Source: a virus
Taxonomy: Duplodnaviria > Heunggongvirae > Uroviricota > Caudoviricetes
Strand: one strand, 5' to 3'
Virus record (IMG/VR): IMGVR_UViG_2711768012_000020
Length of the DNA: 36,971 bases
In this document: one piece after another, positions 14,983 through 15,333 of the stretch
Position numbering within the stretch: the stretch's first letter is position 1
Layout: the number at the start of each line of letters is the position of its first letter
Program-made: the position numbers and the translations under genes
Notes under the pieces: model-generated
What the model was told of the DNA's origin: nothing
Seen by the model: the letters and a program-made list of their open reading frames with translations, nothing else
Database searches by the model: none

Positions 14983-15333
14983 ATGACTCAAAACTATGAA
15001 CTGATTGTGAAAGGGATCCGCAATTTTGAGAATAAAGTTACGGTAACTTTAGCGTTACGGGACAAAAAACGCTTTGACGGTGAAATTTTTGACCTGGACA
15101 TCTCGCTGGACCGTGTTGAAGGTGCCGCGCTGGAGTTTTATGAGGCAGCAGCCAGAAGGAGCATCAGACAGGTCTTCCTGGATGTTGCTGCCGGGTTATG
15201 TGAAGGGGATGAGCAGTCGCCGGAAAAGCGCCCCGTAATTTTAGATGCGCAGAATGTTTGGATAACCTACAAAGGAAAGCTACCAGGAAGAATTACTGGT
15301 TCTCTGAAGACTCCTCCGGAATCACAACCTTAA
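14983..15333 (+). CDS. Hypothetical protein inserted between holin and endolysin
   Basis: 116-aa ORF with an ATG 4 nt after the holin stop; hydrophilic, no signal peptide or TM helix visible; no family recognised. Confidence 0.5.
   Translation: MTQNYELIVKGIRNFENKVTVTLALRDKKRFDGEIFDLDISLDRVEGAALEFYEAAARRSIRQVFLDVAAGLCEGDEQSPEKRPVILDAQNVWITYKGKLPGRITGSLKTPPESQP

Follow-up and report, generated by a model that had tools for sequence, protein, structure and literature searches.

The open reading frame (ORF) at positions 14983-15333 of IMG/VR virus record IMGVR_UViG_2711768012_000020, a 36,971-nucleotide (nt) stretch of Caudoviricetes DNA that is called the window below, almost certainly belongs to the YdfR/DUF1327 family and is referred to here as ydfR. 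It lies between a P21-type pinholin gene and a gene for a lysozyme of the signal-arrest-release (SAR) type. Pfam, RefSeq annotation and the map of Escherichia coli K-12 already record this gene family under its name, as well as its location between holin and lysozyme. The reading proposed here is that of an optional, Escherichia-restricted late gene, coupled to the holin gene, with a cytoplasmic product that would act through RNA or RNase E; taken as a whole, with this mechanism included, the statement falls a little short of an even chance of being correct. The gene is very probably accessory and not required for lysis, and a function of the window protein directed at RNA or RNase E is put forward tentatively, by analogy with the K-12 homologue.

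Family membership and architecture of the ydfR product

The window protein matched Pfam family DUF1327 (PF07041) over residues 1-112 with a score of 144.3 bits (E 1.4e-42), the curated gathering score of the family being 25 bits. It also matched PHROG 406 (E 1.4e-67) and PHROG 2091 (E 3.3e-68), both of unknown function, and near-identical proteins are publicly annotated as 'YdfR family protein'. A preliminary description of this DNA, made without database searches, had seen no recognisable family in the ORF, which was wrong. Its account of the surroundings has stood: the P21-type pinholin, SAR-type lysozyme and Rz/Rz1 context was confirmed by Pfam families PF04971, PF00959 and PF03245, and the ORF does encode 116 amino acids (aa), begins 4 nt after the holin stop and is separated from the lysozyme gene by a spacer of 63 nt, given earlier as about 60 bp. 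The product is hydrophilic, as had been stated, and acidic, with a grand average of hydropathy (GRAVY) of -0.40 and an isoelectric point (pI) of 5.5; neither a transmembrane segment (maximum Kyte-Doolittle 19-residue mean 0.69) nor a signal sequence was found in it. NCBIfam contained no family for the ORF, and no family of the PADLOC-DB defence hidden Markov models matched it at E <= 1.

The coding frame is open to its terminal stop, and the other five frames contain 3-10 stops each. Ratios of nonsynonymous to synonymous substitution rates (dN/dS) between the window gene and its homologues were 0.2-0.45 in the N-terminal domain (N-domain) and 0.09-0.6 in the C-terminal tail, which places both parts under purifying selection. 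The open frame, a Pfam match far above threshold and the predominance of synonymous substitutions together argue that ydfR is not a chance frame. Databases do hold many truncated, frameshifted or fused ydfR copies, but the idea that the window ORF is spurious, or decaying and functionless, is effectively refuted by its open frame, its strong Pfam match, dN/dS below 0.5, a good Shine-Dalgarno (SD) sequence and the existence of full-length identical copies in many genomes, and is left with next to no probability.

Residues 1-74 of the window protein are 81% identical to YdfR of E. coli K-12 (b1555, P76160; BLASTP, E 2e-46). The gene order in the Qin cryptic prophage of K-12 is essQ (holin), a 4-nt gap, ydfR, an ATGA overlap, rrrQ (lysozyme) and rzpQ/rzoQ; the window holin is 94% identical to EssQ and the window lysozyme 94% identical to RrrQ. 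Both ydfR genes encode DUF1327 proteins, occupy the same slot with a 4-nt junction after the pinholin gene, and are followed by lysozyme and Rz/Rz1 genes. Their C-terminal tails, however, are unrelated (42 aa, GDEQSPEKRPVILDAQNVWITYKGKLPGRITGSLKTPPESQP, in the window and 29 aa, KVESYLQHQYSFKIENPANKHERPHHKYL, in K-12), and the K-12 gene overlaps the lysozyme start where the window instead has its spacer. Judged by sequence, the window protein is a tail variant of K-12 YdfR, its closest known entity.

Structure prediction, which the preliminary description had suggested as a check, was performed using AlphaFold2. The N-domain was modelled as three antiparallel strands (residues 5-14, 18-27 and 34-43) and a long helix (residues 50-73), with block values of the predicted local distance difference test (pLDDT) of 63-87; the tail was modelled at low confidence (pLDDT below 50) and is probably disordered. 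The most conserved stretch, R44-x-EGAxLEFYEAxA, is located at the helix start and is recognisable even in homologues encoded in phage tail-gene modules. An 'AAGLCEG' linker follows the N-domain and leads into exchangeable tails, which are of the window type (EKRPVILDAQNVWITYKGKLPGRITGSLKTPP) or the K-12 type, form coiled-coil extensions in proteins of 176 and 183 aa, or consist of further modules in proteins of 263-268 aa. In the YdfR protein, a conserved N-domain of beta-beta-beta-helix form is combined, as in a mosaic, with tails that can be swapped.

The protein gp05 (268 aa) of Stx2-converting phage 86 and the 176- and 183-aa forms have the N-domain family and the slot of the window protein, and share with it the segment 'EKRPIILEAQ..ITYKGKLPGRITGSLK.PP'. 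In the comparison with Stx2-86, dS was 1.5 in the N-domain and only 0.23 in the tail; recombination has therefore joined different N-domains to the same tail. Whereas the longer YdfR proteins of Shiga toxin (Stx) and lambdoid phages carry extra coiled-coil or other C-terminal modules, and some of their genes are separated from the lysozyme gene by a gene on the reverse strand, the window protein ends after the first tail module. A search of the PDB by sequence, using a profile of the ydfR alignment, returned only CENP-P (E about 1), which was rejected as a chance match, and comparison of the ydfR model with BFVD and PDB using Foldseek gave nothing at E <= 1e-3.

DNA of ydfR was matched in 4269 of 5426 complete E. 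coli genomes (about 79%), with up to nine copies per genome, some of them 100% identical. The DUF1327 family is nevertheless very narrow: an exhaustive HMMER scan recovered 65 members among 1.84 billion cluster representatives. A word-indexed search found 313 clusters, and among the 120 listed those with a named source came nearly all from Escherichia or Shigella; a scan of one genome per prokaryotic species gave eight loci, in Escherichia or Shigella except for two contigs of metagenome-assembled genomes (MAGs). A DUF1327 homologue is encoded by 101 of 50,697 phage records, all of them Escherichia lambdoid or Stx phages. A P21-type holin was present in 438 phage records, only about 23% of which have ydfR. 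In cassettes without the gene, the lysozyme gene begins 4 nt after the holin gene (ArgO145) or overlaps it (ev099). The gene is optional in P21-type holin cassettes.

Synteny across cassettes, another check suggested at the outset, was compared in 88 further related loci (80 IMG/VR contigs and 8 genomes, all of Escherichia type and dominated by near-identical copies). A P21-type holin gene, a 4-nt gap and ydfR were found in all 88, followed by the lysozyme gene in 85 and by a contig edge in 3. The layout of holin and ydfR recurs in the divergent phages Stx2-86, Stx1_499, PhiR12_2_star and Evi (46-64% identity), and the order holin-ydfR-lysozyme is the norm in the Qin prophage of K-12 and across thousands of E. 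coli prophages. The preliminary description had allowed that the ORF might prove to be a conserved, already characterised component of the lysis cassette, which holds in part: the gene has a name and is conserved, without being characterised as a lysis component.

The most distant homologues (31-42% identity) consist of the N-domain only (72-94 aa) and were located outside lysis cassettes, between gpI-like and gpJ-like tail genes (loci L010, L092, L093 and L094) or between gpM-like and gpL-like tail genes (L011). Their presence in tail modules argues that the N-domain is the unit conserved and that the link to the holin holds for the Escherichia lineage and not for the family as a whole. Megablast of the L010 and L011 loci against phage records gave no match, and a scan of viral contigs with protein P0176 as query found nothing.

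Three labels in these searches depart from Escherichia and Shigella. Two MAG loci, L006 and L008, carry ydfR in lysis cassettes of E. coli type and are labelled Veillonella parvula and 'Bacillota bacterium', and a partial DUF1327 sequence (P0071) among the 120 clusters listed is labelled Enterococcus faecalis. The first two labels most likely reflect binning contamination, and the third similarly. A protein of 3128 aa with 14 G2F-domain repeats (P0162) matched ORF residues 7-58 in six stretches (E 2.4e-8, 32% identity), which is probably an accumulation of score over repeats and not homology.

Expression signals and candidate functions

An intrinsic-terminator-like hairpin, GGCCACGTCAGGTGGCC, followed by the T-run TTTTTATT, lies directly 3' of the DNA methylase gene and separates it from the holin gene, whose start lies 45 nt further on. 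This hairpin would insulate the lysis genes, including ydfR, from upstream transcription unless the RNA polymerase is Q-modified. Consensus scans, which are weak evidence, detected nothing resembling a promoter on the + strand from 14700 to 15000 and nothing resembling a terminator between ydfR and the lysozyme gene. The terminator 5' of the holin gene and the lack of a promoter-like site suggest that ydfR is transcribed only by Q-modified polymerase, late in infection.

The SD sequence of ydfR, GGGGAGAG, lies inside the last codons of the holin gene, and the gap between the holin TAA and the ydfR ATG is TTCA. In K-12, Stx2-86 and Evi, ydfR is likewise preceded by this SD and a 4-nt spacer, and in ArgO145 the same elements stand before the lysozyme gene; the holin-ydfR junction of PhiR12_2_star and Stx1_499 has a 3-nt spacer. 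In cassettes that carry it, ydfR has taken over initiation signals used elsewhere by the lysozyme gene. On comparison with L095, L098 and L001, the last 28 nt or so of the window spacer (15369-15396), AACCGATAAATCCTGATAAATATCC-ATG, were identified as a conserved lysozyme leader, and in ydfR-bearing cassettes this leader (CCGATAAATCCTGATAAATATCC-ATG) has no detectable SD, its anti-SD duplex being estimated at +0.3 kcal/mol. Folding of the spacer RNA gave no significant structure (z -0.31), Rfam contained no family matching positions 12000-17300, and a tRNA scan found none.

Experimental data on a possible activity come from K-12 YdfR (Göpel et al., RNA Biol 2026, PMC13232886). When RNase G served as bait in a bacterial two-hybrid screen, a fragment comprising residues 1-72 came up three times; this fragment gave stronger signals when paired with RNase E constructs (full-length Rne and Rne1-597), while full-length YdfR gave signals with Rne1-597 only. 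In the same study, Rne1-598-FLAG co-eluted with Strep-YdfR from lysates, and the Strep-YdfR eluate contained large amounts of DNase-resistant nucleic acid, leading the authors to suggest that YdfR may bind RNA. Because the window protein is 81% identical to K-12 YdfR over the relevant 74 residues, an activity directed at RNA or RNase E may be expected of it as well.

The proposed mechanism combines these data with the gene arrangement. In this view ydfR is cargo placed between the pinholin and SAR lysozyme genes of a Q-dependent late operon, has no promoter of its own and would be translated from the SD in the 3' end of the holin gene, so that its product is made together with the holin late in infection. 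The small, soluble, acidic protein would stay in the cytoplasm and not act on the membrane lysis machinery. There, by homology to K-12 YdfR, it might bind RNA, RNase E at its catalytic N-terminal half (and RNase G), or both, and would thereby modulate how RNA is degraded or processed at a late stage of the lytic cycle. Several points weigh against this proposal. The RNase E link comes from one paper, by two-hybrid assay and co-purification from lysates, and the contact could be bridged by RNA; over-production of K-12 YdfR altered few transcripts (PMC13232886); the N-domain has an acidic pI of 5.1, atypical of RNA-binding proteins; and the unvarying place directly after the holin gene in all Escherichia copies may still point to a functional connection with lysis.

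The remaining literature defines no function. A Keio ydfR deletion was among the matches of an envelope-leakiness screen (PMC3879167 supplement), a result that might stem from polarity of the kan cassette on rrrQ, the SAR lysozyme gene downstream. Over-expression of ydfR raised the minimum inhibitory concentration of streptomycin 3-fold in a screen (PMC12924614), b1555 showed a marginal microarray change in a lambda lysogen (PMC2147009), and 'DUF1327' is treated in one genomics paper.

The preliminary description had offered three roles, of which an antiholin-like factor fits worst, since the protein has no membrane segment and the holin has a dual-start motif of its own. As a regulator of lysis at the protein level, YdfR would contact a lysis protein, such as the pinholin at its Lys/Arg-rich cytoplasmic C-terminal tail, and thereby alter the time of triggering. 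An acidic protein facing a basic holin tail would suit such a contact, as would the strict place of the gene, 4 nt after the holin stop and with a shared SD, in the 88 loci and in every annotated Escherichia phage example; the envelope-screen result has been counted in its favour, although it may be polar. Even so, no similarity to holins or antiholins was found in Pfam or PHROGs, about 77% of the phage records with a P21-type holin lack ydfR, distant homologues lie in tail clusters away from holins, and over-produced K-12 YdfR changed only few transcripts. The second proposed role, that of a lysis-timing regulator, thus gained no positive support, and protein-level regulation of lysis is considered unlikely. 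Regulation at the RNA level appears a shade less probable again: YdfR would bind the mRNA of the lysis cassette, or recruit or block RNase E/G there, and so set the amount of SAR endolysin made from the SD-less leader. This version fits the holin coupling, the conserved SD-less leader and the reported association of K-12 YdfR with RNase E and RNA and, if true, would connect lysis timing and the holin:endolysin ratio with host RNA decay. An effect mainly in cis, in which insertion of ydfR uncouples translation of the endolysin from the holin SD and lowers the ratio of SAR endolysin to holin while the protein matters little, is improbable. The positions of the lysozyme start in ArgO145 and ev099 agree with it, as does a lysozyme leader in ydfR-bearing cassettes that is SD-less or, in K-12, overlaps the ydfR stop; dN/dS of 0.2-0.45 and the conservation of the N-domain in unrelated genomic settings show instead that selection acts on the protein itself.

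The third role, an accessory gene exploiting late expression, is the closest of the three to the evidence. The holin-lysozyme slot behaves as a general cargo site: the DUF1327 proteins encoded in it are 72 to 268 aa long and differ by exchanged tails, and Stx2-86, PhiR12_2_star and Evi carry unrelated genes there on the reverse strand. This variability, the narrowness of the family and the occurrence of a short DUF1327 gene with a convergent partner both in the slot and among tail genes would also suit generic 'moron'-like cargo unrelated to RNase E, serving for example counter-defence, superinfection exclusion or host takeover. Against such cargo, there was no PADLOC match, no promoter or terminator of its own, and no clear foreign signature relative to the neighbouring genes in the guanine-plus-cytosine (GC) content of ydfR (0.467 overall and 0.453 at third codon positions); K-12 ydfR yielded almost no reads under standard growth (PMC13232886), and this explanation ignores the only experimental data. 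It is considered rather unlikely, and an RNA- or RNase E-directed function remains the tentative preference.

Slot contents and neighbouring genes

The features of the window that bear on ydfR, together with the positions of the convergent two-gene module described below, are listed in Table 1.

Table 1. Coordinates of ydfR, its subdivisions, adjoining lysis genes and signals in the window, and of the convergent module in comparison loci
Feature	Coordinates	Strand	Basis or remarks
Intrinsic-terminator-like hairpin and T-run	14702-14726 (hairpin 14702-14718)	+	Terminator scan
Pinholin, S21-like, 71 aa	14763-14978	+	Pfam PF04971 'Bacteriophage P21 holin S', E 2e-35; PHROG holin families
ydfR Shine-Dalgarno sequence	14968-14975	+	Anti-SD duplex -8.5 kcal/mol
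ydfR ORF	14983-15333	+	ATG at 14983, stop at 15331-15333; 116 aa
ydfR N-terminal domain	14983-15204	+	Codons 1-74
ydfR variable C-terminal tail	15205-15333	+	Codons 75-116 plus stop; GDEQSPEKRPVILDAQNVWITYKGKLPGRITGSLKTPPESQP
Spacer between ydfR and lysozyme gene, 63 nt	15334-15396	+	
SAR-type lysozyme, 177 aa	15397-15930	+	Pfam PF00959
Rz i-spanin	15912-16394	+	Pfam PF03245, PHROG 13; likely start GTG at 15927
Rz1 o-spanin lipoprotein frame, embedded in Rz	~16147-16353	+	ORF list
Convergent module	L098:2501-3040 (phage Evi), L011:449-1001, L092:3001-3548, L093:3001-3548		

The window pinholin opens with M-K-S-M-D-K, so that dual starts at Met1 and Met4 form the S21-type dual-start motif. The lysozyme has an N-terminal Gly/Ala-rich, SAR-like segment and an E-x8-D-x5-T triad, both as read from its residues. 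The window belongs to a lambdoid phage, in which RusA, KilA-N and DUF968 genes, a Q antiterminator gene (11566-12360) and the DNA methylase gene (13643-14695) lie 5' of the lysis genes and the genes for a DUF1441 protein and the large terminase lie 3' of them. The methylase, between the Q antiterminator region and the lysis cassette, is an N6/N4 DNA methyltransferase (PF01555) of 350 aa. Downstream of Q, an ORF of 141 aa (12640-13065) matched no Pfam family and is followed by a terminator-like hairpin at 13143-13162.

The reverse-strand genes found in the slot include gp06 of Stx2-86 (L095:3317-3631, -) and a 'DUF1823' protein gene of PhiR12_2_star (L096:2958-3218, -). A convergent two-gene module was observed in which a 72-aa DUF1327 gene, comprising the N-domain only and located on the late strand, is followed by a gene of about 100 aa on the opposite strand. 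In Evi this module lies in the holin-lysozyme slot, and in unrelated contigs with a lower GC content of 0.44-0.49 it lies between the tail genes gpM and gpL or gpI and gpJ; the window cassette has no partner gene of this kind. The L011 copy of the partner gene matches PHROG 25324 (function unknown), and the Evi and L092/L093 copies align with it, sharing the motif KPLSQQLD.VLP.L...V[LI]PFY[IL]AVTAKLSG[KR][ST].

The Evi partner gene showed a likeness of 30% over 79 aa (E 1e-4) to window positions 21876-22106, within a 739-aa head-region ORF (21276-23495, prohead-protease region), which was judged unreliable and probably due to chance, the L011 homologue giving E 0.29. The same partner gene found nothing in the PDB by sequence, and gp05 of Stx2-86 found Pcc1 at E 0.035, which was rejected. 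PADLOC returned only two weak and inconsistent matches (E 8e-4 and 0.018) for the long DUF1327 variants and the reverse-strand partner genes, and the long variants were counted as having no defence family.

Comparison with known phage systems

For ydfR, which is found in about 79% of complete E. coli genomes and also in Shiga-toxin phages, the sole functional lead points to RNase E, RNase G and RNA. Phage-encoded modulators of RNase E include T4 Srd, T7 gp0.7 and phiKZ Dip, small proteins that act on host RNA decay, and T4 Srd is said to target the N-terminal half of RNase E, the catalytic one, as does the contact reported for YdfR. Should the RNase E lead hold, YdfR would resemble these proteins in function without being related to them, and temperate lambdoid phages would have in it a late-made factor directed at RNase E, a kind of which we know no other example.

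Regulators of lysis encoded beside holin and endolysin genes include the dual-start antiholins S21-71 and lambda S107, T4 RI, P1 LydB and the Mu releasin gp25. Most of them act at or in the membrane or in the periplasm, LydB being a possible exception, whereas YdfR has no membrane segment or signal sequence and is absent from most cassettes with the same holin family. Classical lambdoid morons such as lambda bor and lom bring a promoter and a terminator of their own and are expressed in the prophage state. Unlike these, ydfR has no promoter or terminator signals of its own and is coupled to the holin; like them, it is optional between conserved late genes, and its distant homologues lie at the classical moron location among tail genes.

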